Positions 3,372 to 20,163 of a stretch of 32,000 nucleotides of DNA are shown here, one piece after another (the first letter of the stretch is position 1; each line of letters starts with the position of its first letter). The DNA comes from Propionibacteriaceae bacterium (GTDB lineage Bacteria; Actinomycetota; Actinomycetes; Propionibacteriales; Propionibacteriaceae), in NCBI GenBank assembly GCA_031256725.1, contig JAIRQE010000008.1, positions 1,010-33,009 of the forward strand. Direction: 5' to 3'. A program made the position numbers and the translations under genes. The notes beneath the pieces are model-generated. The model made no database searches and had not been told where the DNA came from. It saw only the letters and a program-made list of their open reading frames with translations.

Positions 3372-4385
3372 ATGGAGGCATCTCGCACATCACCTACAAT
3401 TGCCGATGTCGCGGCCCTGGCTGGGGTCTCCCACCAGACCGTATCTCGGGTACTCAACAACCATCCCTCAGTGTCGGCGAAGACCCGCCACAAAGTGAGG
3501 GAAACCATTGCAACCTTGGGGTATCGCCGCAACCTCGCTGCACGTACCCTCGCCACGGGGAATAGCCGCATTATTGGTGTCATGGTTACGAGTACCCATC
3601 TCTCCGGCCCGTCAGGATCCCTGCTCGCTATCGAGCAGACAGCGCGAGCACAAGGATATTGGGTCTCTATGGCAGGCATTCAAGGAGGGGAACCAGATGA
3701 GGTACTTGAGGTCATCTCCCACTTTATTGACCAGGGAGTGGATGGGATCATCGCTGTTGTCCAAACCCAAACAGCAGTCGATGCCACCATCAAGGCATCC
3801 GGCGGGATGCCCACTGTACTGGTCACCTCCGGCGTTGTGCCAGACAACCTTCCCTCAGTGGATATCGACCAGTACACAGGCGCCAAACAGGCGATGACCA
3901 TTCTCAAAGGCCTAGGTCACACAAATATTGCCCATGTCTCGGGCCCGTGTGATGACCTCCATTCAGAGTTACGTGCAGCCGCTTGGCGAAGTTCCCTGCC
4001 TCCCAGCGTCTCCAATCAAGGGATCATCTTTGAAGGGGATTGGAACTCATGGTCAGGATACTGCTGCACAATGTCACTACTGGCCCTAGAAGAACTGCCT
4101 ACTGCTATCTTTGCTGGGAATGACCACATGGCCTTCGGGGTTCTTCGAGCCCTCAACGAACGTGGAATGAAAGTACCCCAAGACATATCAGTTGTTGGCT
4201 TTGATGATATCGGCGGAGCCGACTGTTCGATCCCTCCCTTGACAACCATTCATCAGGATCATCACGCTTTGGGACAAGCAGCCATGGAACTCGTATTAGA
4301 GGCCATTGATGGTCGGCCTGCACGCTCGGTGAAGATTCCTACTCAGTTGATTGTACGATCCTCGACTGGCGTACCTAGTCGCTAA
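3372..4385 (+). CDS. LacI-family transcriptional regulator, probable arabinose-operon repressor
   Basis: N-terminal HTH PTIADVAALAGVSHQTVSRVLNN followed by a periplasmic-binding-protein-like sugar-binding core (VGFDDI). Divergent from araBDA. Confidence 0.85.
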   Translation: MEASRTSPTIADVAALAGVSHQTVSRVLNNHPSVSAKTRHKVRETIATLGYRRNLAARTLATGNSRIIGVMVTSTHLSGPSGSLLAIEQTARAQGYWVSMAGIQGGEPDEVLEVISHFIDQGVDGIIAVVQTQTAVDATIKASGGMPTVLVTSGVVPDNLPSVDIDQYTGAKQAMTILKGLGHTNIAHVSGPCDDLHSELRAAAWRSSLPPSVSNQGIIFEGDWNSWSGYCCTMSLLALEELPTAIFAGNDHMAFGVLRALNERGMKVPQDISVVGFDDIGGADCSIPPLTTIHQDHHALGQAAMELVLEAIDGRPARSVKIPTQLIVRSSTGVPSR

Positions 4386-4447
4386 ACGACCCTTCATGTG
4401 GTCTCGTGTCCCCCTCAAGGGGTTATCCCGCACCTCACCTCATACAT

Positions 4448-5284
4448 TTATGGGGTGACCTCAAAGGTGATCTCTGGGTTGAAGGCGGCCCGTCGTACTG
4501 TTCTTCTGAAGGCAGCCAGAACAGGCAGGCCTACGAGAACGAGAAGGACTGAATTTGTGATGGCTCGACCGGTATCCCATACGGCTGTTGAGGTGATGAG
4601 GGAGAAGACCAGGAACCTGCGGAGATTGTCGATCAGTGAACCACCTGGGATATAGGCCAGTTCGGTTGTACCCACCATGGAGGGGCCGATCAGATAGGGC
4701 CAGAACCACAGGTTCATGATCATTCCGAAGAAATACGCTGTGAAGATACCATAGATCACGAGCATGAGGATCTCCCATTTCCCGCGAATCATCCGCCCAA
4801 AGATGGAGTTGGGCAGCAATCCTGCACCCATACCGATCCATGCTGAGGCAAGCATCTGGAAGGGCATCCAGGGTCCAACACCAGCAGTGAGTAGTGCGGA
4901 AGCGAACAGGGAGGTACATCCCAAAACAAAGCCGAACCCGGGGCCAAAAACCCGTCCAGCAAGGATAAGCAGAAAGAAGACGGTCTCTATTCCACCTGTA
5001 CCTGCTCCCAAGGGTCGAAGGGCAGCATTGATCGCGCTTAGTACCCCCAGGATCGCCAACGCTTTAGCATCCATCCCCTTTTCGGAGATCTGAGCCAGTA
5101 CAAGGAAAACCAAGAGCGGCAAAATAGCGATGAAGATAAATGGGGAGGTGGAGACCATCCCATCCTCGACCCGTACAGGAATGAGCAAGGGCCACGAGAA
5201 CATAGCCAGCCCTGCCACCGTGAGGATGGTGAGCATGAGGGCAGACTTCCACTCAAGGGGTACTGGGTTATGGATCTGGTTCAC
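4448..5284 (-). CDS. Polytopic membrane protein, putative substrate-specific (S) component of the upstream ECF transporter
   Basis: 278 aa and almost entirely hydrophobic helices. Its start overlaps the ATPase stop by 4 nt (ATGA). Last gene of the riboswitch-led operon. Confidence 0.6.
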   Translation of the reverse strand: MNQIHNPVPLEWKSALMLTILTVAGLAMFSWPLLIPVRVEDGMVSTSPFIFIAILPLLVFLVLAQISEKGMDAKALAILGVLSAINAALRPLGAGTGGIETVFFLLILAGRVFGPGFGFVLGCTSLFASALLTAGVGPWMPFQMLASAWIGMGAGLLPNSIFGRMIRGKWEILMLVIYGIFTAYFFGMIMNLWFWPYLIGPSMVGTTELAYIPGGSLIDNLRRFLVFSLITSTAVWDTGRAITNSVLLVLVGLPVLAAFRRTVRRAAFNPEITFEVTP

Positions 5285-7020
5285 CAGGAGACCTCAGATT
5301 CATACCCTCTGGGATCGTGTACGCCGTCATCATGGGAGTCTTCCAAATTCAGTGCTTGACCAACCTGATAGGCAGTCAACCAGCGCTCTGGATATAACAC
5401 CTTGGCAACCTGGGGTGCGAATAAGGCCGAGGTACCAAGTACCTCAGGAGCCGTACCAGATTGGATCACCTCCCCGGCAGCCATGACAATGATCTGGTCT
5501 GCAACCTCAGCAGCAAATTCCACATCGTGGGTCACTACCCCAACACTTCTCCCCTCCCAGGCCATCTCCTCAAGGATCTGGGCCAGTGATGCCTTGGCGG
5601 GGTAATCAAGTCCGCGAGTGGGCTCATCCAAGAGGATCACATGGGGCCGGGCTGTGAGTTGTATCGCGAGCACCAAACACAGTTGCTGACCCTGGGATAG
5701 ATCCCTCGGATGGCTTCGAGAATCAACCTGAGGAGCCAGAGCATCAAGGATTTGCCGACACAACCCCGACTCGCATCCCGATTCCCTATCGGCAGCCTGG
5801 CATTCCTCTTCCACGCTTGACAGGTACAGCAGGTCACACGCGGTTTGAGGTACAAGACGTACGAGGTCACGTACCTTGTCTGGCCCCTTGTTTTCCAGGT
5901 CAATCCCATCGACGGAATACCGACCGGAGTCCATCTTTTGCACCCCTGTCAAAGCCCACAACAGACTGGACTTTCCTGAACCATTTCGACCCATGATGAC
6001 AGTGATCTTGCCTGGGGGGAGGCTGAGTGAGACATTATTAACCGCGCATGTATGTCCGTACATTATCCGTACATTCTTAGTGGTGAGACCATCCGATTCG
6101 ATGGCCTCCAGTCGCTGGGTACCTGATGGTTTCAATGAAGGATCAGCCAGACGTACAGAGGATCTCCCCTGGGCAGGAGGGACACGGCGAAAGCGACCAG
6201 GGTCCTTCGTGACCAGTGCTGCGCGTATCGGATCAGCCATCCGTCGGGCATCACGTACCGATAAGGGGACCTCAGGAAAGGAGGCTATTCGACCCAAGGC
6301 AACCACAGGTGGTACCAAGGAACTCGCCTCCATGATCAAGCGGGTCTCCCCCTGGGTAACCCCACCACGCCCATCAAGGAGGAGCATTTGATCAGCATAT
6401 CCAGCAACCCTCTCCAAACGATGCTCGGCGATGATGACTGTGAGACCAAGATCATGGACCAGCCTCAACAAAGCAGCAAGTACCTCCTCCGATGAGACCG
6501 GATCAAGGGCCGACGTGGGCTCGTCAAGAACAAGTACCCTTACTCCCGTAGCGAGAACAGAACCGACGGCGACCCGTTGCTGCTGACCACCTGAGAGGGT
6601 TCTCAAAGGGCGATTGCGAAGATCGGCAAGACCAAGAATGTCAAGAGTCTCCTCCACCCGTGTCCTCATCTGTTGAGGATCAATCCCAAGCTGCTCCATT
6701 CCATAGGCCAACTCCTCCTCCACGATGTCGGTCACGAAACCAGCGAGAGGATTCTGATTGACAACCCCAATCACATGGGCCAAGTCACGGGGAGGATGCT
6801 GGGCAGTATCAAGCCCCTCAACCTCGACGCGACCAGTCACAATCCCACCAGTGAAATGGGGTACATGCCCATTGATGGCACCCAGGAGGGTGGATTTCCC
6901 TGACCCAGTACGACCCGCCACAAGGATGAGTTGACCATCAGCCAACTCCAAGTTGATGTCACGGATCACAGGCTCCTGGTCGACCCCATACCGTATTGAT
7001 ACAGAATCAAAGCGAATCAT
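5281..7020 (-). CDS. ECF/ABC transporter ATP-binding protein with two fused ATPase domains (EcfA-EcfA' type)
   Basis: Two Walker A motifs (GRTGSGKST, GRNGSGKSS), two signature motifs (LSGGQQQR, LSQGQQ) and two Walker B motifs (LVLDEPTS, ILLDEPTR) in 579 aa. Confidence 0.9.
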   Translation of the reverse strand: MIRFDSVSIRYGVDQEPVIRDINLELADGQLILVAGRTGSGKSTLLGAINGHVPHFTGGIVTGRVEVEGLDTAQHPPRDLAHVIGVVNQNPLAGFVTDIVEEELAYGMEQLGIDPQQMRTRVEETLDILGLADLRNRPLRTLSGGQQQRVAVGSVLATGVRVLVLDEPTSALDPVSSEEVLAALLRLVHDLGLTVIIAEHRLERVAGYADQMLLLDGRGGVTQGETRLIMEASSLVPPVVALGRIASFPEVPLSVRDARRMADPIRAALVTKDPGRFRRVPPAQGRSSVRLADPSLKPSGTQRLEAIESDGLTTKNVRIMYGHTCAVNNVSLSLPPGKITVIMGRNGSGKSSLLWALTGVQKMDSGRYSVDGIDLENKGPDKVRDLVRLVPQTACDLLYLSSVEEECQAADRESGCESGLCRQILDALAPQVDSRSHPRDLSQGQQLCLVLAIQLTARPHVILLDEPTRGLDYPAKASLAQILEEMAWEGRSVGVVTHDVEFAAEVADQIIVMAAGEVIQSGTAPEVLGTSALFAPQVAKVLYPERWLTAYQVGQALNLEDSHDDGVHDPRGYESEVSW

Positions 7021-9249: not shown

Positions 9250-11003
9250 CTCCGCAAGGCGACCCCCATCAGGATGAATCCTAGGGCTGTCACAATGCCT
9301 GGATTACCCATGGAAAGGGAACCACCTGTTGAAGCACTAGGTTTCGACACCTCCGGTTTTGAGGAATTGGCACCAGACTGCGGTTTTGAGGAATCGGCAC
9401 CAGACTGGTTCCCGGTCGGTGGGTCCAGGGTGGATGAAGGATCAGCCGGAGGATCAGACTCGCAGGATTCCCTCACAGGGAGATCTGTTTCAATCCCCTC
9501 AGCAGTCAGATTTTCAAAGCCAGGCCCGCCCAATCCAAGAACTGCTTGAACAGTGGCACGTACGAATTGGGATGTACTCGATTCGATGCCCTCATCCACA
9601 CCTTGAGAAAAGGTTTCTGGATTATACGCAATAGCGCCGAGGTCTGCTTCGGTGAGTTTTCCTGTACTTGCTTCGATTGATGTACAACTCACCTGAAGGG
9701 TCCCAATGAAGCGGACAGCCCCCTCAAGGACAGCAGTATTTCCATGGAGTGCTTGGGATCCAAGACCCGTACTATTCGCATTGGGCGCACCAAAGGCTGA
9801 GAATCCACCCGAGGATTCCTGCTTGGAGATGAGCCATTGTTCAGCCATAGCATATTCGGGAGAACCCGAGGCACCCGAGGCTTGTAGCGCCTGAAGTACC
9901 ATAGCTGTCATATCAATATCGGCTCCGCCGCAGCCTGAAGACCAGCCAAAGGAACCGTCGGTGGAGCACTGTCGACCAAGGATCCACTGAGTTGCCTGAA
10001 CGGGTACACCACCATCAGTTCTCGCCAAGGCCAACATGGCCAAAGAATGATTGAACGAGGAATCCGATCCAGGATTACCGAAAGACCCGTCAGCATTCAT
10101 AACTGAGCGAATCTCGAAGAGCAGGTTGCGACCATCGAAAGATGTGGGGTCCTCACCAGCCACCATCAAGGCCAAGGCCACTTTGGCGGCCCGCGCCCAG
10201 CGTGTACCAATCTCGGAACTGCTTCCAATGTAGGCCGAGCCTGAAGCCTTGAGCTTGGCGGCAGTCTTCGAAAGTTGGGTACCACCCACCCCAGCTGAGG
10301 CTAGAGCGAAGATAGAATCGGTGGTCAACTCCCAGTCAACCCCTGAAAATCCTGGAATGACATCGTCGTTGTCTGCGAGTATCTGTCCCAACCATGCTAC
10401 TGCTGTTACAGCGTCGGCTGATCCTTTCGCTGTGGCTGGTGCGACCGACTTCACAGTCACACCACGATTCAGCTCGTTAAGCTTCGGGGTTGGTTCACAT
10501 CGTGACGGATCATCAAGCTCCCAGGTTGGATCATAATCGAGCATCATACAATCCCAGGAATCGGCAGCTCTTAGCAGATAGGCTTGATCGACTTTCAGTG
10601 GACCATCGCCGCCACCAATCTGGGCAAAGGTCCACGATGTGTCTGCGGGACCCGCAGCGGTACCTGTTGTTGTTGATGTGAACATCTCCCAGTAGCCATC
10701 CCAGCTACCGTAGATCTTAGATGGGTTCACACCATCAATCTCGGTAACGAATCCGCTTGCATGGGTGACAGTGAACCCTGCTCCAGTTACGGCATCAACG
10801 ATACTTGGCCATGTACCAGGGGCACATCGTACCTCTACGTCAGAGCCATTCGGCGAATAATCAACAATGACAGTCACACCCTGACCGGGCTGACATGCTG
10901 CTCCACGAACAGCATCAGCGTGGGCGATACCTGGTATAGTGAAACAGAAGAGGGAAAAGAAAAGGGCGGTCGTAATGCCGACGGCCCCCAAACGAGTTTT
11001 CAT
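9231..11003 (-). CDS. Secreted, C-terminally anchored protein: N-terminal DUF4430-like module + prenyltransferase/squalene-oxidase-repeat (alpha/alpha toroid) domain
   Basis: Start placed at MKTRLGAVGITTALFFSLFCFTIPGIAHA (signal peptide). GVTVIVDYSPNG...VRCAPG...GFVTEIDGV...YWEMF is DUF4430-like. Repeated xDGSFG/GGFS motifs (NADGSFGN, STDGSFGW, ESSGGFSAF) are typical of prenyltransferase-like repeats. C-terminal TM IVTALGFILMGVALRRW. Confidence 0.65.
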   Translation of the reverse strand: MKTRLGAVGITTALFFSLFCFTIPGIAHADAVRGAACQPGQGVTVIVDYSPNGSDVEVRCAPGTWPSIVDAVTGAGFTVTHASGFVTEIDGVNPSKIYGSWDGYWEMFTSTTTGTAAGPADTSWTFAQIGGGDGPLKVDQAYLLRAADSWDCMMLDYDPTWELDDPSRCEPTPKLNELNRGVTVKSVAPATAKGSADAVTAVAWLGQILADNDDVIPGFSGVDWELTTDSIFALASAGVGGTQLSKTAAKLKASGSAYIGSSSEIGTRWARAAKVALALMVAGEDPTSFDGRNLLFEIRSVMNADGSFGNPGSDSSFNHSLAMLALARTDGGVPVQATQWILGRQCSTDGSFGWSSGCGGADIDMTAMVLQALQASGASGSPEYAMAEQWLISKQESSGGFSAFGAPNANSTGLGSQALHGNTAVLEGAVRFIGTLQVSCTSIEASTGKLTEADLGAIAYNPETFSQGVDEGIESSTSQFVRATVQAVLGLGGPGFENLTAEGIETDLPVRESCESDPPADPSSTLDPPTGNQSGADSSKPQSGANSSKPEVSKPSASTGGSLSMGNPGIVTALGFILMGVALRRWVVLP

Positions 11004-11079
11004 GAAGAATCTCTCTATGAGCGATCCGAAAGGAACGCCAAGAAAACTCAGACGCCCCTCCACAGACCTCGATGGATGG

Positions 11080-11215
11080 AAACGCTCCTCACCACACAGG
11101 CATCGGACTCATCAACAATCGTTGATCTACCGTTGCGGGTCAGTGTCGGGCTTTGACCGACTTCCCCTGAATGGTTCGGTATTCAATTGTGCCGCTCACT
11201 CTAGCACAGTACAAT
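11080..11215 (-). promoter_or_regulatory. Cobalamin (B12) riboswitch leader of the 11003->4448 operon
   Basis: Minus strand reads ...CAUUCAGGGGAAGUCGGUCAAAGCCCGACACUGACCCGCAACGGUAGA...GAGUCCGAUGCCUGUG. This matches the conserved core AGGGAA-xCGGUGxAAxxCCGxxxCUGxCCCGCAACxGUA and a B12-box-like AGUCxGxAxxCCUGxx. It lies directly 5' of the first gene. Confidence 0.75.
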
Positions 11216-11529
11216 CCCACGCAAAACAATCACAGGATGTTGATTCAATTTAAATATCAGTAATAGCAATTGGGGTAGGTCCCGCAAGCTCCTCACTATG
11301 GATCGATTCCCTGTCACACATGGGCATTCGTACCGCAAAGCCAGTTACTACGATACATCGTTTACTCTTTCTATTGCGATGCACCCAATCATTAAATATT
11401 TATAGCATTATTGGAAATTGCTCCTTTCGGCTTCTAGAAAGCACAAAATTCACTAGCCGAAAGATGCATATTGCGAAGAAAAGTAACTAGGCTTGTTAAC
11501 GAACTCTTAGCATGTACATCATCACCATC

Positions 11530-11544: not shown

Positions 11545-11554
11545 TGTCTTGGTT

Positions 11555-11615
11555 CGGGACATAGGAAACCCCTGTCTCGGGACATAGGAAACTGATGTGT
11601 CGGGACATAGGAAAC
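11555..11615 (+). repeat. Three direct copies of CGGGACATAGGAAAC at the left IS end (11555-11569, 11578-11592, 11601-11615); one inverted copy at the right end (12849-12863)
   Basis: Exact 15-mers read directly in the sequence at 23-bp spacing. Confidence 0.9.
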
Positions 11616-11629
11616 GCGACGATGGGTGA

Positions 11630-12838
11630 ATGTCTATCGCGAAACTAGTCATCACTGCCGTCATTGTTCAAGGACTCACTCAGTCTGAAGCCGCCAGCAA
11701 GTACGGGGTCTCAAAAGGATGGGTGTCCAAACTGATGGCCCGATACAGAGCGGAAGGCGAGACTGCATTCCAGCCGAAGTCCACGCGTCCTCACACCTCA
11801 CCCAACGTTACATCCGACACCACGACCACAACCATCGTCACGATCCGAACCGACCTTGTTAACAGAGGTCTCGACGCTGGACCAGAAACGATCCGTTGGC
11901 ACCTGGAACATCACCACCACATGATCGTGTCCAGAGCGACGATCGCAAGGATCCTCACCCGCGAAGGTCTCGTGGCACCCGAACCCAGGAAACGTCCGAA
12001 AACCTCGTACACTCGTTTCGAAGCCGCTCAACCCAACGAATGCTGGCAATCCGACTTCACCCACTACAGGCTCACCCACCCAGACGGACAACCCGGCCCC
12101 GACACCGAAATCCTCACCTGGCTCGACGACCACTCCCGCTACGCCTTATCCGTCACCGGACACATCCGAGTCACCGCACCAATCGTCTTAGCCACATTCC
12201 GTCACACGATCAGCCTCTACGCTCCACCAGCGTCCACCCTGACCGACAACGGCATGGTCTACACCACCCGATTCTCCGGTGGGAAAGGCGGACGCACCAG
12301 CTTCGAGAAAGAACTCCAGAAACTCCACATCATCCAGAAGAACGGGCACCCCAACCACCCTCAAACCCAGGGCAAAGTCGAACGATTCCAACAAACCCTG
12401 AAGAAATGGTTACGCGCTCAACCGCACCAGCCCGCCACACTGACCGAACTACAATCTCTTCTTATTGCTTTCACTGATGAATACAACAACCGGCGCCCGC
12501 ATAAATCATTGCCCCACCACCAGACTCCCGCGACCCGATACACCACCGGGATGAAAGCCAGTCCAGCCAACAACCCACCACCCGAATCTCACAACCGTGT
12601 CCGCTACGACAAAGTCGACACATCCGGACGAGTCACCCTCCGCCACGCTGGACAACTCCACCACATCGGCATCGGACGAACCCACACCGGAACCCTCGTC
12701 ACCATGCTCATCCAAGACCTTCAGATCACAATTATCAACACCGCCACTGGAGAAATACTGCGCGACCTCATCCTCGACCCCACCAGGGATTACCAACCCC
12801 ACACCCAAAAACAACAAACCAGCGAACCCGCAATCTGA
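11630..12838 (+). CDS. IS481-family DDE transposase (HTH + rve integrase core)
   Basis: N-terminal HTH LTQSEAASKYGVSKGWVSKLMARY. Catalytic-core motifs CWQSDFTH, WLDDHSRY, LTDNGMVYT, HPQTQGKVERFQQTLKKWL. 402 aa with no frameshift. Confidence 0.9.
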   Translation: MSIAKLVITAVIVQGLTQSEAASKYGVSKGWVSKLMARYRAEGETAFQPKSTRPHTSPNVTSDTTTTTIVTIRTDLVNRGLDAGPETIRWHLEHHHHMIVSRATIARILTREGLVAPEPRKRPKTSYTRFEAAQPNECWQSDFTHYRLTHPDGQPGPDTEILTWLDDHSRYALSVTGHIRVTAPIVLATFRHTISLYAPPASTLTDNGMVYTTRFSGGKGGRTSFEKELQKLHIIQKNGHPNHPQTQGKVERFQQTLKKWLRAQPHQPATLTELQSLLIAFTDEYNNRRPHKSLPHHQTPATRYTTGMKASPANNPPPESHNRVRYDKVDTSGRVTLRHAGQLHHIGIGRTHTGTLVTMLIQDLQITIINTATGEILRDLILDPTRDYQPHTQKQQTSEPAI

Positions 12839-12873
12839 GGGTTCACCGGTTTCCTATGTCCCGAGACATCACA

Positions 12874-12888
12874 TTCTCACGACAGCAT
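12874..12888. repeat. Right copy of the flanking direct repeat TTCTCACGACAGCAT
   Basis: Identical to 11530-11544. Confidence 0.6.
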
Positions 12889-14396: not shown

Positions 14397-14486
14397 AAGT
14401 TTCCTTTCCTGAAACTACGCCAGAATCATACCGGGTACGAGCATCTGGTAGCCACTTGGCCTCACGGGAACCTGTACCCTTAATCT

Positions 14487-15668
14487 ATGCAGTTAAGTCG
14501 CAAGCTAGAGCAGCAGATTGCCGTATTTGGTGAAAGTGGTTCGGGAAAGACCGTTCTGATCTCCTCGTTTTATGGTGCCACTCAAGAACCGTATTTCCTT
14601 CAGAAAAGCTTGTTTGATGTTATCGCTGATGATTTCGGACAGCGTGCTCATCTTCACCAGAATTACCTGGGGATGAAGAACTCAGCAAAGCTGCCCATGG
14701 CTACACGTTTTCGTGGCTCCTCTTATTCCTTCACAGTGAAACTGAAAGAGTTGCCGGGTGGGAAGTCGAGCAAGAAGCCACCGAAACAGTTATTTGATGC
14801 CCTTCGACTGGTGTGGCATGACTATCCGGGGGAATGGTTCGAACAAAACCTCGTGGATCCCGAAGAAGCCCAGCACAGGGTGAATACTTTCAGATCTTTG
14901 GTGGGATCTGATGTTGCCTTGCTGCTTGTGGACGGACAAAAGTTGCTGGATAACGCCGGCGAGGAGGAAAGGTACCTCAAGTCGCTGTTCACCAACTTCC
15001 GTAATGGCCTGCTCAGCCTCAAAGATGATCTTCTTGAAGGGGGCAAACCCCTTGTTGACTTCCCGCGTATTTGGGTACTTGCCCTATCCAAATCGGATCT
15101 ACTCCCTGATGTCGATGTGTTTCGTTTCAAGGAGCTTCTCATTGAGAAGGTTGCAGGCGAGATCGTAGAACTGCGCAATGTTCTTGCTGGATTTGTTGAC
15201 TCCAGCGATGCACTCTCAGTGGCTGAAGACTATATCTTGTTGTCATCAGCAAAGTTCAATCCAGACAAGATCGAAGTCAGTGAACGTGTGGGAGTGGCAG
15301 CAATTCTTCCTTTAGCCTCCATCCTTCCTTTTGAACGCCATCTTCGTTGGGTACAAACAAAGAAAGCGGTCGGAAAGGTCGCCGAGAGTCTTCTGAGCGT
15401 GGCTGGTATCTTCGCCACAGCAATGATCGGAGGCAAACTGAAGAGCTCCACAAAGGAGAAGAAAACAGGAAAGCTCTCAGGCCTTGTTAAACTGGCTGGA
15501 ATCGTGGATGTCGCGGTTGAAGCAGTGAAGCTTGCTGGGGAGAAACTTCGTATTCTCAATGAACAGGCCATCAGCCAGGGCGACACTCTTTCTGCTGTAC
15601 TCACCCAGTTCCAACTGGATTTGGAAAAGTGTGAAGAGGACCGAGTCCTTCATAGGAGCATAGGGTGA
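14487..15668 (+). CDS. Ras-like/TRAFAC-class P-loop GTPase with a hydrophobic/amphipathic C-terminal extension; family not recognised (gene A of the candidate module)
   Basis: Ordered G motifs: G1 GESGSGKT (aa 15-22), G3 LRLVWH-DYPG (aa 112-115), G4 SKSD (aa 201-204), G5 SAK (aa 254-256). The C-terminal 125 aa contain VGVAAILPLASILPF and LLSVAGIFATAMIGG. No SD upstream; a TANNNT hexamer lies 6 nt before the ATG. Confidence 0.7.
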   Translation: MQLSRKLEQQIAVFGESGSGKTVLISSFYGATQEPYFLQKSLFDVIADDFGQRAHLHQNYLGMKNSAKLPMATRFRGSSYSFTVKLKELPGGKSSKKPPKQLFDALRLVWHDYPGEWFEQNLVDPEEAQHRVNTFRSLVGSDVALLLVDGQKLLDNAGEEERYLKSLFTNFRNGLLSLKDDLLEGGKPLVDFPRIWVLALSKSDLLPDVDVFRFKELLIEKVAGEIVELRNVLAGFVDSSDALSVAEDYILLSSAKFNPDKIEVSERVGVAAILPLASILPFERHLRWVQTKKAVGKVAESLLSVAGIFATAMIGGKLKSSTKEKKTGKLSGLVKLAGIVDVAVEAVKLAGEKLRILNEQAISQGDTLSAVLTQFQLDLEKCEEDRVLHRSIG

Positions 15669-16015
15669 AACTCATATGGGCCACCCGGGGAAGAACCTGG
15701 GGATTTCGGTTCCTGAAAAAGGCAGGATTCGCTGATCCTCTGCCTGAGTACGAGAAAGCCTTCTGTCACATTGAGGAGGAACCGGAGATCTGGCGTCGAC
15801 TCGGCAGGGTTGTCGCTGTTCGTTTTTCTGACCCTGAGGCCCGGCAAGATCAGTCGGGCAGAGTCATCCCCCATGAGTTTGTTCTCTATGGCGTTCTGGG
15901 AACACAAGTGAACTCAGTCAGTGACGCATTAACACTGGTATGGCCCTTGGTAAGCGACGAATTTGATCGGATCTGGGATCAACAAGATCCCCTCTCAAAC
16001 CGTGAATCAGACTAG
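15665..16015 (+). CDS. 116-aa soluble protein of unknown family, translationally coupled to the GTPase (gene B of the candidate module)
   Basis: The GTG start overlaps the gene A stop (GTGA). AGGAG at 15654-15658 lies 6 nt upstream. No TM segment or recognisable catalytic motif. Confidence 0.6.
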   Translation: MKLIWATRGRTWGFRFLKKAGFADPLPEYEKAFCHIEEEPEIWRRLGRVVAVRFSDPEARQDQSGRVIPHEFVLYGVLGTQVNSVSDALTLVWPLVSDEFDRIWDQQDPLSNRESD

Positions 16016-16059
16016 ATGACTTCGTCATCTGATGTGAAAATCACGTATCCTTGAATCTA

Positions 16060-16761
16060 ATGGATTCACCGTATTCAAATACCCAAGGTCCCAGAAGATC
16101 TGCTCCAGGCCCGCAAACTCACCATGCGAGCCCTCCTCGTCGTGCCTATACTCCAGACGAAACCGAACCGATCATGGCTGGGTACACCTACACACCAGGT
16201 AACACCTCAGTACCCATGGACCCTGCTTCAGCCAGCCCGCTTGTACCCACCCTTGCGCCTGGTGACTCCATCACGAACTACAAACCCCACAACAGCACTG
16301 GGTGGATCATCACTTTAGTCGTACTCCTGGTTGCTGGCATCGGGGGAATGATTCTTGTGAACAATCTTCCCCAACCCGAGGTCATAGTTACTGAGACTCC
16401 TCCACCACCTACGAGCTATACCACTGAATCTCGTACCGGTGGGATGGCTTTCGCGGAGAAAGATCTGACCGGATATTGGCGGATCACTGATACCAAATGG
16501 GGCACGAGTGGTGTCACCCTCACCGTGGAGGTGATGGTTGACACAGGCATTCTCTTCTATGACTTCTACGCTTACGCTGTTGATGACCTCACGCAATTGG
16601 AGCAGATCCTGACCTCCCCCACCGACCTTATTCCTGGGTTTGTTGGCCCTGGGGAATCCATCACGGGTACAGTCACCTTTGAAACATCCCGTCAGTCTCT
16701 CCAACTCATCATGGTCAGTCGTGGACAAACACAATTATCAGCTTTACTGGTGGATGAGTGA
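16060..16761 (+). CDS. Single-pass membrane protein: Pro-rich N-terminal tail, one TM, C-terminal beta-rich ectodomain (DUF4352-like)
   Basis: TM WIITLVVLLVAGIGGMILV. C-terminal GESITGTVTFE pattern. Start ambiguous (TTG 16051 in the track or ATG 16060), and neither has an SD. Confidence 0.55.
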   Translation: MDSPYSNTQGPRRSAPGPQTHHASPPRRAYTPDETEPIMAGYTYTPGNTSVPMDPASASPLVPTLAPGDSITNYKPHNSTGWIITLVVLLVAGIGGMILVNNLPQPEVIVTETPPPPTSYTTESRTGGMAFAEKDLTGYWRITDTKWGTSGVTLTVEVMVDTGILFYDFYAYAVDDLTQLEQILTSPTDLIPGFVGPGESITGTVTFETSRQSLQLIMVSRGQTQLSALLVDE

Positions 16762-18573: not shown

Positions 18574-20163
18574 CTACAGACCGATGTCGAAAGAAATCAC
18601 GGAGTTCGACATGGATCCGACTCTGAAATGGGAACCTTGGGGAGCCTCAACGGGGACCTGGTAGACGAAGATACCTTGGACACTATTCCCTGGTTGAATG
18701 GTGAGAACCCAGAAGGTGTTCTTTGTACCATCAGGCGCAGAAATGGCCATGGTTCCATTGGGGTTCGGTCGATAGGCGACACCATCGCCTGCAGCCAAGA
18801 TCGAGTCAGAGACCACATGTACATAGGTCTGCGAGCCAGAGAAACTCATTTCAATGGGTACTGCAACAAAAACCATTCCAGGCGAAGGTGTCGTTGACCC
18901 AATCTCGGTGAGTACCTCTGCTTGATCAAGGACAGTGAAGGTCACCAATCCGGATTCGACCTTCATCGACACCGGCATACCAATGGGTACTAATGTTCCT
19001 GTTGGTGGCCTAGATTCTGGAGGCGGTTGATTCAAAGGCGACTCCACTGTGGAGGTACCACCAGGATTTGTTGACCCTGATACGGAAGAACCAGTACCAC
19101 TACTGCCTGGAGTACCTGAGGTGAGCATCCATGGCACCCCTCTGATGCCCACAAGAATTCCAGCAGCCACAGCTACAAGAATGGCGACAATAAAGAGTAT
19201 TACCAATCCTGGACTTACCTTACGCTGAGGTTTCTTCTTGTGCTGAGACTTCTTCTTGGGTTGTACAGGGGGGTGGGGAACAGAAGTCCGGTGCTCGCCC
19301 ACTGGAGGTATAGGTTCAGTAAGCATAGGCCAGGCTGGCAGTGGTACTTGCTTAGGTTCTTCCTGAGGCAGATCCGCCATAATTCCAGGAGGCCAGGCAG
19401 GTACAGTTTCAGGCGGCTGCAAAGGTTGATGGGACAGCAATTCGGGATATGACATCGGGATGGGGGAAGTAATCTCAACTGGTAATGGTTCTGGAATTAC
19501 TGACTCAGATGTCTCGGGAGCTGGTGACTGCGGCGTCACTCCTGGTACTGGAGTGGGCATCCATATCGGTGGCTGGTACTGAGTTTCCAGTGCGGGAGAC
19601 TGAGGCTCAAGGAGTTGAGGTGTCGAGGGCGGTACTGGCGCAGACTCCAAAGTTGGCACAGACTCTACAGTTACTGGATCTTGAGGCTGAAGTACCACTG
19701 GGGGTACTGTCGCTGTCTCAGAAGTTGCGGGTGCCTGAGGTGGCTGCGGCATGGACTCAGGTTGAAGAGGCTCAAGCGGAACTGAAGGTACCGATGTTTG
19801 AAGAAACTCGGCTGGAACTGAAGATTCTAGTGGTTGTGTATAGTCGGGGACCTGAGGAGGCTCAGGTGGTACTTCTGGACGCGGGCCGTAGTAACCAGCG
19901 TACTGACCCTCATTCAGATGCTGACCATCCGGCGGATACGGCCCAGGCGCACTGAGTCCTGGATAGGGGCTCGAACCAAAATCGGGTAAAGGCTCAGTCT
20001 GAATCTTGTGGGATTCCGCTGAAGACTCTGGTTCAAGGCGCGGATCAATCTCCTCCTTGTCTGGAGGAACTGTACCTAATGTAACCCATGCCTCCACTGT
20101 CTGGGGTCCATTTACAGGACTCTCGCTCACAAGACTAATCGTACCCCTGAAGATCGAAAACAA
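18574..20163 (-). CDS. Large Pro-rich single-pass membrane protein with a C-terminal DUF4352-like beta domain
   Basis: About 320 aa of Pro/Glu/Gln/Ser/Val-rich low complexity, a basic KKKSQHKKKPQRK stretch, TM LVILFIVAILVAVAAGILVGI, then a beta-rich domain (GNSVQGIFVYQVP). TTG start is uncertain. Confidence 0.65.
   Translation of the reverse strand: MFSIFRGTISLVSESPVNGPQTVEAWVTLGTVPPDKEEIDPRLEPESSAESHKIQTEPLPDFGSSPYPGLSAPGPYPPDGQHLNEGQYAGYYGPRPEVPPEPPQVPDYTQPLESSVPAEFLQTSVPSVPLEPLQPESMPQPPQAPATSETATVPPVVLQPQDPVTVESVPTLESAPVPPSTPQLLEPQSPALETQYQPPIWMPTPVPGVTPQSPAPETSESVIPEPLPVEITSPIPMSYPELLSHQPLQPPETVPAWPPGIMADLPQEEPKQVPLPAWPMLTEPIPPVGEHRTSVPHPPVQPKKKSQHKKKPQRKVSPGLVILFIVAILVAVAAGILVGIRGVPWMLTSGTPGSSGTGSSVSGSTNPGGTSTVESPLNQPPPESRPPTGTLVPIGMPVSMKVESGLVTFTVLDQAEVLTEIGSTTPSPGMVFVAVPIEMSFSGSQTYVHVVSDSILAAGDGVAYRPNPNGTMAISAPDGTKNTFWVLTIQPGNSVQGIFVYQVPVEAPQGSHFRVGSMSNSVISFDIGL

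Follow-up and report, generated by a model that had tools for sequence, protein, structure and literature searches.

DO-GTPases are a family of TRAFAC GTPases defined by their Walker B Glu (Kaur, Burroughs, Iyer and Aravind, eLife 2020, PMC7159879). They always occur with a three-domain GAP1 protein (GAP1-N, GAP1-M and GAP1-C), encoded downstream or fused. The systems often possess two GTPase paralogues (38% of systems) and N-terminal zinc ribbons (60%), and they combine GASH with GAP1-N1, or FNIII repeats with GAP1-N2, besides variable effectors; the DO-GTPase has been predicted to act as the switch of conflict systems (PMC7159879). DO-GTPase systems constitute one large class of predicted prokaryotic conflict systems. 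A candidate relative, consisting of two genes only, is located in a stretch of 32,000 nucleotides (nt) from the metagenome-assembled genome of a Propionibacteriaceae bacterium (assembly GCA_031256725.1, contig JAIRQE010000008.1, positions 1,010 to 33,009; hereafter the window). Gene A encodes a predicted TRAFAC GTPase, gene B a small partner, and the two form an autonomous two-gene unit. Since A lies above the cut-off of PF19993, a family described in 2020, the GTPase is of a known kind, and only the two-gene architecture and the partner B are undescribed so far; full-text literature searches found no description of the pair.

With the DO-GTPase/GAP1 systems the pair shares PF19993, the TRAFAC core, a Glu after the Walker B Gly, a partner gene directly downstream, mobile gene neighbourhoods and a predicted membrane-proximal role. 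In contrast to these systems, it possesses a single GTPase, lacks zinc ribbons, GAP1, GASH, FNIII and variable effectors, and combines A with a protein of 116 amino acids (aa) without a Pfam family. An ordinary DO-GTPase/GAP1 system, whose other components are encoded elsewhere or were missed, is therefore a very improbable explanation of the locus. It would account for the PF19993 match above the cut-off, the Walker B Glu and the downstream position of the partner, which the described systems display as well, but only part of the PF19993 model is matched, and B, without a Pfam-A match at E ≤ 1, is far too small for a three-domain GAP1. No family besides A and B recurs in the 78 other loci compared, be it GAP1, GASH, FNIII, a second GTPase or a zinc ribbon. 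GASH and FNIII are absent from the 25 commonest Pfam families of 142 immediate neighbours as well as from the recurrent gene clusters within 10 kb. Each pair possesses one A; the A cluster comprises 74 members in 72 loci, and the extra members belong to separate A-B pairs. A has no space for a zinc ribbon, because its P-loop strand begins at aa 8.

Systems of a GTPase and a Roadblock or longin regulator (MglA-MglB, Rag-Ragulator, FLCN-FNIP, GATOR1 Nprl2/3, Mon1-Ccz1) likewise combine a GTPase with a small alpha/beta domain. The predicted topology of B is that of a longin domain, and these regulators are its best structural matches. FLCN and Nprl2 provide an arginine finger from their longin domain, and B also possesses invariant arginines. 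The pair differs from these systems in that the matches of B are weak and come without sequence similarity, and in that A is not a GTPase of the MglA, Rag or Arf type. The conservon (CvnA-D) is, like the pair, an actinobacterial operon with a GTPase (CvnD), here accompanied by a Roadblock protein (CvnB). It comprises, however, four genes, including the sensor kinase-like CvnA and CvnC, in multi-copy chromosomal loci, whereas no CvnA/CvnC-type partner recurs beside the pair and A belongs to another GTPase family (DO-GTPase2). In the dynamin-like defence operon of the Eleos/LeoA type, P-loop mutations abolish anti-phage defence (Millman et al. 2022). This operon is GTPase-based too, and atlastin and GBP of the dynamin superfamily are among the fold matches of A, but A possesses neither a Dynamin_N nor a PADLOC match, reaches about half the size and is not paired with a second dynamin.

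Gene A and its coupling to gene B

By its sequence, A belongs to the TRAFAC GTPases and has kept every nucleotide-binding motif intact (Table 1). The motifs occupy the residues given in the initial annotation of the window, including LRLVWH-DYPG (aa 106-115), VALLLVDG (aa 143-150) and SAK (aa 254-256). Seven residues (K21, D112, G115, K202, D204, S254 and A255) do not vary among 48 aligned homologues, nor after the addition of variants with 36-37% identity. The Walker B Glu typical of DO-GTPases (hhhhDYPGE) is present in A as E116 and conserved in at least 90% of the aligned homologues. Against PF19993 (DO-GTPase2), A scores 32.8 bits (Pfam gathering cut-off 27, E = 7e-8), in a partial match whose best stretch aligns aa 108-169 to profile positions 91-143 of 226. 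Precomputed PF19993 matches are present on all but one of the 120 homologues listed. The initial view that A could not be assigned to a family is superseded by this match. The label "Ras-like" has also turned out too specific, as a Foldseek search with the model of A yields 73 matches at E ≤ 1e-3, all of them TRAFAC GTPases of many kinds (among them EF-Tu, atlastin, GBP1, FeoB, Rab/Rho and septin). No solved structure is related to A by sequence, and scans against PADLOC, NCBIfam and PHROGs reveal nothing meaningful.

The G domain (aa 8-252) is modelled by AlphaFold with moderate confidence (predicted local distance difference test, pLDDT, ~70-88), the remainder (aa 254-393) with low confidence and with long helices at aa 270-314 and 337-363. 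P275, L280, P281 and W288 of this C-terminal module are invariant, and its conserved terminal helix ends in LRS. The module had been described as hydrophobic, which holds to a borderline degree only: Kyte-Doolittle maxima over 19 residues are ~1.5, and the Gly/Ala-rich stretch is lost in divergent variants from low-GC (guanine plus cytosine) contigs. Likewise, the Lys-rich loop between G1 and G3 to which attention had been drawn is variable in the alignment and deleted in the divergent variants.

The open reading frames (ORFs), their frames, the GTGA overlap and the AGGAG inside A were all located exactly by the initial annotation. The junction is one of stop/start coupling, by which B is predicted to be made from the same mRNA as A. 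Homologues of A form ~2000 clusters across Actinomycetota (60-66% identity); those of B number 678. A B homologue lies 3' of A on the same strand in all 84 A-containing genomic loci, an association far beyond what chance would give. Of 82 junctions, 77 read ATGA or GTGA, which bears out the proposal of a translationally coupled module built on a TRAFAC GTPase. GGAG precedes the B start by 9-13 nt in 67 of the 82 pairs. The Shine-Dalgarno sequence of B is composed of the Arg (AGG/CGG) and Ser (AGC) codons of the conserved C-terminal Leu-Arg-Ser of A. AGG is a rare codon in high-GC actinobacteria, and its frequency at the A-B junctions (L001-L085) suggests selection on the ribosome-binding site.

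The association also holds in the reverse direction. Starting from B-like genes in independently sampled metagenomic loci, 71 loci extend far enough upstream of B, and an A-like gene lies directly upstream in 70 of them. A and B are inherited and diverge together, their pairwise divergences being correlated (r = 0.64, Mantel p ≤ 0.001). A conserved third gene is lacking: the 142 immediate neighbours represent 141 Pfam families, none of which occurs more than four times, and clustering of all 1162 genes within 10 kb leaves only A and B widely common, followed by a cluster of generic short-chain dehydrogenases (14 of 78 loci).

A single orphan B was found (L140, 2081-3400), following a Cys-rich 256-aa ORF and a DprA-like gene, with no A upstream. 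Two apparent natural A-B fusions, considered as proof of interaction, were rejected as probable artefacts, namely L055, caused by a single-base deletion in a 10x contig of a metagenome-assembled genome (MAG), and P0252, with a frameshift-like Arg/Gly/Pro-rich middle part.

The partner B and its relatives in phages

B possesses no Pfam match at E ≤ 1 and no NCBIfam or PADLOC family; its sole family match is PHROG 38171, to which no function is assigned. A profile search of 1.84 billion representatives recovers only 294 clusters. They display three architectures: a standalone protein of ~115 aa, B with a transmembrane helix, and, in phages, a DUF7211 motif followed by a hydrophobic helix and a C-terminal B-like domain. 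Residues D56, P57, R60, D62, R66, I68, P69 and H70 of the core motif are invariant across the actinobacterial, the low-GC transmembrane-type and the phage subfamilies, and so are R8 and W93. Their positions suggest that the b1-b2 hairpin and the b4-b5 loop form a functional site.

The model of B is confident (pLDDT 90, predicted template modelling score, pTM, 0.84) and consists of the elements E3-8, E14-19, H26-33, E42-46, E49-55, E69-74, H76-81, H85-91 and H93-103 (E, strand; H, helix), in the order b-b-a-b-b-b-a-a-a. The predicted structure has the order of a longin domain, i.e. a five-stranded b-b-a-b-b-b sheet and C-terminal helices. About 40 of the top 50 PDB matches in Foldseek are longin or Roadblock regulators of GTPases, all weak; the matches include FNIP2, LAMTORs, Lst4, Nprl2/3, Sec22b, VAMP7, Mon1-Ccz1, MglB and MglC, with FNIP2 as the best (E = 4e-3) and template modelling (TM) scores of 0.37-0.45. 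A longin/Roadblock-type fold of B is plausible on the basis of this model.

Transmembrane-type B is found in low-GC contigs, where it is also preceded by an A-like GTPase, the latter without the Gly/Ala-rich hydrophobic C-terminal stretch. The occurrence of a transmembrane tail on B where the tail of A is not hydrophobic suggests that a membrane tether is provided by one subunit or the other. These relatives were recovered in a metagenome scan with an alignment as query; the scan with the single protein P0340 found nothing. A search for homologues of the transmembrane-type B returned only P0294 itself, on a 1.1-kb contig with an uninformative upstream ORF end.

A B-like domain is also present in gp8 of the Arthrobacter phages Tokki and Nightmare, whose gene lies between those for terminase and portal. 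The protein shares 42% identity with B (E = 4e-30) and superimposes with a TM score of 0.85. Four IMG/VR contigs possess the gp8 architecture, and Rhodococcus phage ReqiPepy6 carries a distant relative. Hosts of the named phages all belong to Actinomycetota, the phylum carrying the pair, and the phages and viral contigs with B-like domains lack A. The N-terminus of gp8 was considered as a relative of the C-terminus of A and rejected, as the two display no similarity. These B-like proteins may be triggers, mimics or unrelated uses of the fold.

In Tokki (L004, 5225-6680) and Nightmare (L005, 5231-6690), genes 8 and 9 both open with a 25-aa DUF7211 motif (HYGVKGMKWGxRK), which in gene 8 precedes the hydrophobic helix and the B-like domain. 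The motif might act as a signal for packaging or mark a site of processing. In L092, L093 and L094, the B profile also gives a weak alignment to the DUF7211 motif (compare WATRGRTWGFRF of B with HYGVKGMKWGxRK), so that the motif may be a copy of the first beta-hairpin of B. Two further proteins, P0376 (548 aa; LigT/2H phosphoesterase, DUF7211, transmembrane helix, B-like domain, DUF7211 and tail) and P0339 (359 aa; a fusion of gp8-like and gp9-like parts), resemble 'polyvalent' proteins of phages. 2H phosphoesterases include the anti-CBASS enzyme Acb1.

Distribution, gene neighbourhoods and possible function

Relatives are present in ~306 of 185,579 species genomes (pattern scan, one genome per species). 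Among the species listed, nearly all belong to Actinomycetota, besides one contig from a Sumerlaeia MAG. The genes flanking the pair in the window (fdxA, dapC, ORF236 and fadD) have orthologues in none of the 78 other loci. Closest to A of the window are relatives from Leucobacter, Cryobacterium, Geodermatophilus and Micromonospora, not those from the four other Propionibacteriales loci. One pair is located on a 108-kb plasmid of Curtobacterium flaccumfaciens, and TrwC relaxases occur in five loci. The pair moves between lineages, and the horizontal acquisition proposed initially agrees with the lack of synteny and with nearest relatives in other families. Base composition, cited in the same context, deviates in the expected direction but far less than hand counts had indicated: GC content is 49.3% in A, 52.7% in B, 56.1% in dapC and 55.0% in fadD, against a mean of 53.9% (standard deviation 1.7%) over 1182-nt segments of the window, of which A falls in the lowest 1%. 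GC content at third codon positions is not distinctive.

Transport of the pair as phage cargo was rejected, as 2.9 million viral contigs contain no relative of A. A record named 'UNVERIFIED Bacteriophage sp.' (MT835574.1, L006) carries the pair within an ordinary high-GC bacterial chromosome (with genes for CorA, NadA, NadC and a class-V aminotransferase); its phage label looks wrong, at least around the pair. In Kocuria cellulosilytica (L009), two A-B pairs are located on opposite strands at 3925-5564 (-) and 9995-11505 (+), ~4.4 kb apart.

A rival explanation is a toxin-antitoxin-like addiction or stabilisation module of mobile elements. Left without restraint, A would harm the cell through its C-terminal helices, and B, translated along with A, would inhibit it. 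The pair would then persist because its loss kills the cell, not through protection from phages, and the phage B-like proteins would be antitoxin mimics. Two small co-translated genes forming an autonomous unit fit this explanation, as do the plasmid copy, the proximity of relaxases, a resolvase and insertion sequence (IS) elements, and the occurrence of orphan B and of phage B-like domains without A, as expected of a neutralising subunit. Most copies, however, lie on chromosomes without recognisable mobile-element genes nearby, A far exceeds typical toxins in size and conservation, and a DNA-binding domain for autoregulation is lacking. Addiction is accordingly regarded as unlikely, although it overlaps with an abortive-infection form of defence and the two are not mutually exclusive.

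Beyond the window, the pair often lies among defence genes (BREX, DISARM, McrBC, GmrSD, CBASS, restriction-modification), in line with the conflict-type context suspected from the outset. An Arthrobacter locus contains BREX PglZ/BrxD and GmrSD near the pair, and a Streptomyces locus contains GmrSD. The locus of Mycobacteroides abscessus possesses Fic with a helix-turn-helix domain (Fic-HTH), an OLD/AriA/GajA-like ATPase, Mrr, a resolvase and TraG, the Agromyces locus McrBC, a methylase, Vsr and the DISARM protein DrmB (E = 2e-73), and the Curtobacterium plasmid a type ISP restriction-modification system and CBASS. In MT835574.1, a NERD-UvrD helicase and an Ltp-type lipoprotein border the pair. 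Further matches of immediate neighbours are SspE, DRT-like, PDC-S02 and HEC-06.

In Streptomyces (L002/L003, 9997-17167), an HSP70-centred operon lies beside the pair, followed by the lanthipeptide genes Lant_dehydr_C and LANC_like. The three other genes of the operon (445, 408 and ~300 aa) lack Pfam matches, and the operon may be another uncharacterised system.

The co-travel of A and B between actinobacteria and the frequency of anti-phage neighbours suggest that the pair is probably a minimal immune module. We give about even weight, from sequence comparisons, to the reading that A-B is a self-contained, mobile, minimal relative of the DO-GTPase conflict systems, most likely serving in defence against phages or mobile elements; a defence function is plausible, as inferred from the gene neighbourhoods. 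According to this reading, the longin/Roadblock-like B would bind A and set its GTP/GDP state, as a regulator of the GTPase-activating or guanine nucleotide exchange type or as a lock, possibly via the invariant Arg/Asp/His loop. The complex would be located at or near the membrane, with the hydrophobic segment contributed by the C-terminal helices of A in high-GC actinobacteria or by the transmembrane tail of B in low-GC variants. An infection cue would alter the A-B interaction and let A switch state, upon which the C-terminal module of A, or the whole complex, would damage or block the membrane or the infection process. In actinophages, the B-like domains might serve as this cue or as a mimic holding A off.

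Several observations weigh against this defence reading. The neighbours of the pair in the window are housekeeping genes, to which the initial annotation had rightly found no functional relation, and no defence gene is among them. Two of the eight annotated contexts elsewhere (Micrococcus and Virgisporangium) contain no defence genes, and many immediate neighbours are metabolic (permeases, dehydrogenases). A near-versus-far comparison of PADLOC matches was dropped, as its 'far' set (7.5-10 kb) is clipped at locus ends, biased towards short genes and unequal in size (36k vs 49k residues); the association with defence genes stays qualitative because this control set is biased. PADLOC-DB v2.0.0 contains no family matching A, B or the downstream ORF at E ≤ 1, so that the pair corresponds to no named defence system, as already supposed. 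A and B are unusually conserved for defence genes, with 60-66% and 51-62% identity, respectively, to the window proteins across orders, and possess no variable effector or sensor domains. An effector role of the C-terminal module is a guess, because the module is modelled at low confidence. None of the PDB matches of B reaches E ≤ 1e-3, and sequence profiles, including one of all three subfamilies, retrieve no longin or Roadblock relative and no Pfam or PDB match. The DO-GTPase/GAP1 systems themselves are known from prediction only.

Some of these points would suit a GTPase and regulator of cell biology or stress (cf. MglA/MglB, the conservon, membrane stress), active in envelope, polarity or developmental control of some actinobacteria and without a role in conflict. 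Strong purifying selection without variable domains and housekeeping neighbours in the window and several other loci are consistent with such a role; the pairing of a GTPase with a longin/Roadblock-like protein is a classic regulatory layout, and a DO-GTPase beside psp genes, tied to membrane stress, has been reported in the literature. The pair is present, however, in only ~306 of the species genomes and without conserved synteny, its relationships do not track taxonomy, and it occurs on a plasmid and twice in one Kocuria locus. Together with the repeated BREX, DISARM, McrBC, GmrSD, CBASS and restriction-modification neighbours and the lack of a conserved sensor kinase or CvnA/CvnC-type partner, this makes a purely cell-biological role quite unlikely.

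The pair offers the simplest handle on the role of DO-GTPases, with ~1.5 kb, no accessory genes and hundreds of natural variants, one of them on a plasmid. If B is truly of the longin/Roadblock type, the partnership of GTPase and longin, otherwise known from eukaryotic nutrient signalling, trafficking and MglA/MglB, would extend to bacterial mobile immunity. The phage B-like domains give a specific hypothesis of trigger or anti-defence, for which phages (Tokki, Nightmare) and hosts (Arthrobacter) are in culture. Rather unlikely is the joint reading that A-B is an immune switch of GTPase and longin-like protein, following the logic of eukaryotic Rag/FLCN/GATOR, which actinophages counter with their own copies of the regulator. 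Eukaryotic immune GTPases would then be the parallel for the GTPase half, and the DUF7211-transmembrane-B-like phage proteins would be delivered or made early and hold the GTPase off or serve as its cue.

Features of the window

Coordinates are listed in Table 1. A scan for the sigma-70 consensus, which covers actinobacterial promoters poorly, found no promoter-like site for A-B. No terminator-like site is present 3' of B, as all four terminator-like matches fall within A or B, and in the window the pair is bordered neither by direct repeats nor by att-like sites.

Table 1. Position of the A-B pair, its motifs and the neighbouring mobile element in the window (position 1 is the first nucleotide of the 32,000-nt stretch)
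Feature	Position	Strand	Evidence or remark
Gene A, predicted TRAFAC GTPase, DO-GTPase2 family, with C-terminal helical module; ATG start, 393 aa	14487..15668	+	ORF, Pfam, homologues, fold matches
G1/P-loop GESGSGKT, aa 15-22	14529..14552	+	G15, G18, S19, G20, K21, T22 invariant
Walker B/G3 strand LVWHDYPGE, aa 108-116	14808..14834	+	L108-G115 invariant, E116 nearly so
G4 SKSD, aa 201-204, NKxD variant with guanine-specifying Asp kept	15087..15098	+	S201, K202, D204 invariant
G5 SSAK, aa 253-256	15243..15254	+	S253, S254, A255 invariant
C-terminal module of A, aa 258-393, long helices with moderately hydrophobic Gly/Ala-rich segments	15258..15665	+	
Gene B, alpha/beta domain of predicted longin-like topology, obligate partner; GTG start, 116 aa	15665..16015	+	ORF, homologues, model
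B core motif DPxxRxDxxGRxIPH, aa 56-70, beta4-beta5 loop	15830..15874	+	invariants across three subfamilies
GTGA overlap of A stop codon and B start codon	15665..15668	+	sequence
Shine-Dalgarno AGGAG for B, within A	15654..15658	+	sequence
Intergenic region between the divergent genes fdxA and A, presumably with the promoter of the A-B operon	14397..14486	+	position only
IS481-like element past dapC, with own inverted repeats	11545-12876		transposase ORF 11630-12838
Terminal inverted repeats of the IS481-like element	11545-11615 and 12844-12876		
Three tandem 23-nt repeats (TCGGGACATAGGAAAC...) at the IS481-like element	11554-11622		

The ORF at 16051-16761 was considered as a third component and rejected, as it possesses no homologue beside any other pair and no family match (only marginal PHROG matches, E > 0.1). 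Together with 18574-20163, which has no precomputed Pfam match listed, it encodes one of two Pro-rich proteins flanking fadD, each with one hydrophobic segment and without a clear family assignment; neither is found beside the pair at other loci. At the IS481-like element, ~140 nt before dapC, an independent assembly of the window sequence (L091) comes to an end.

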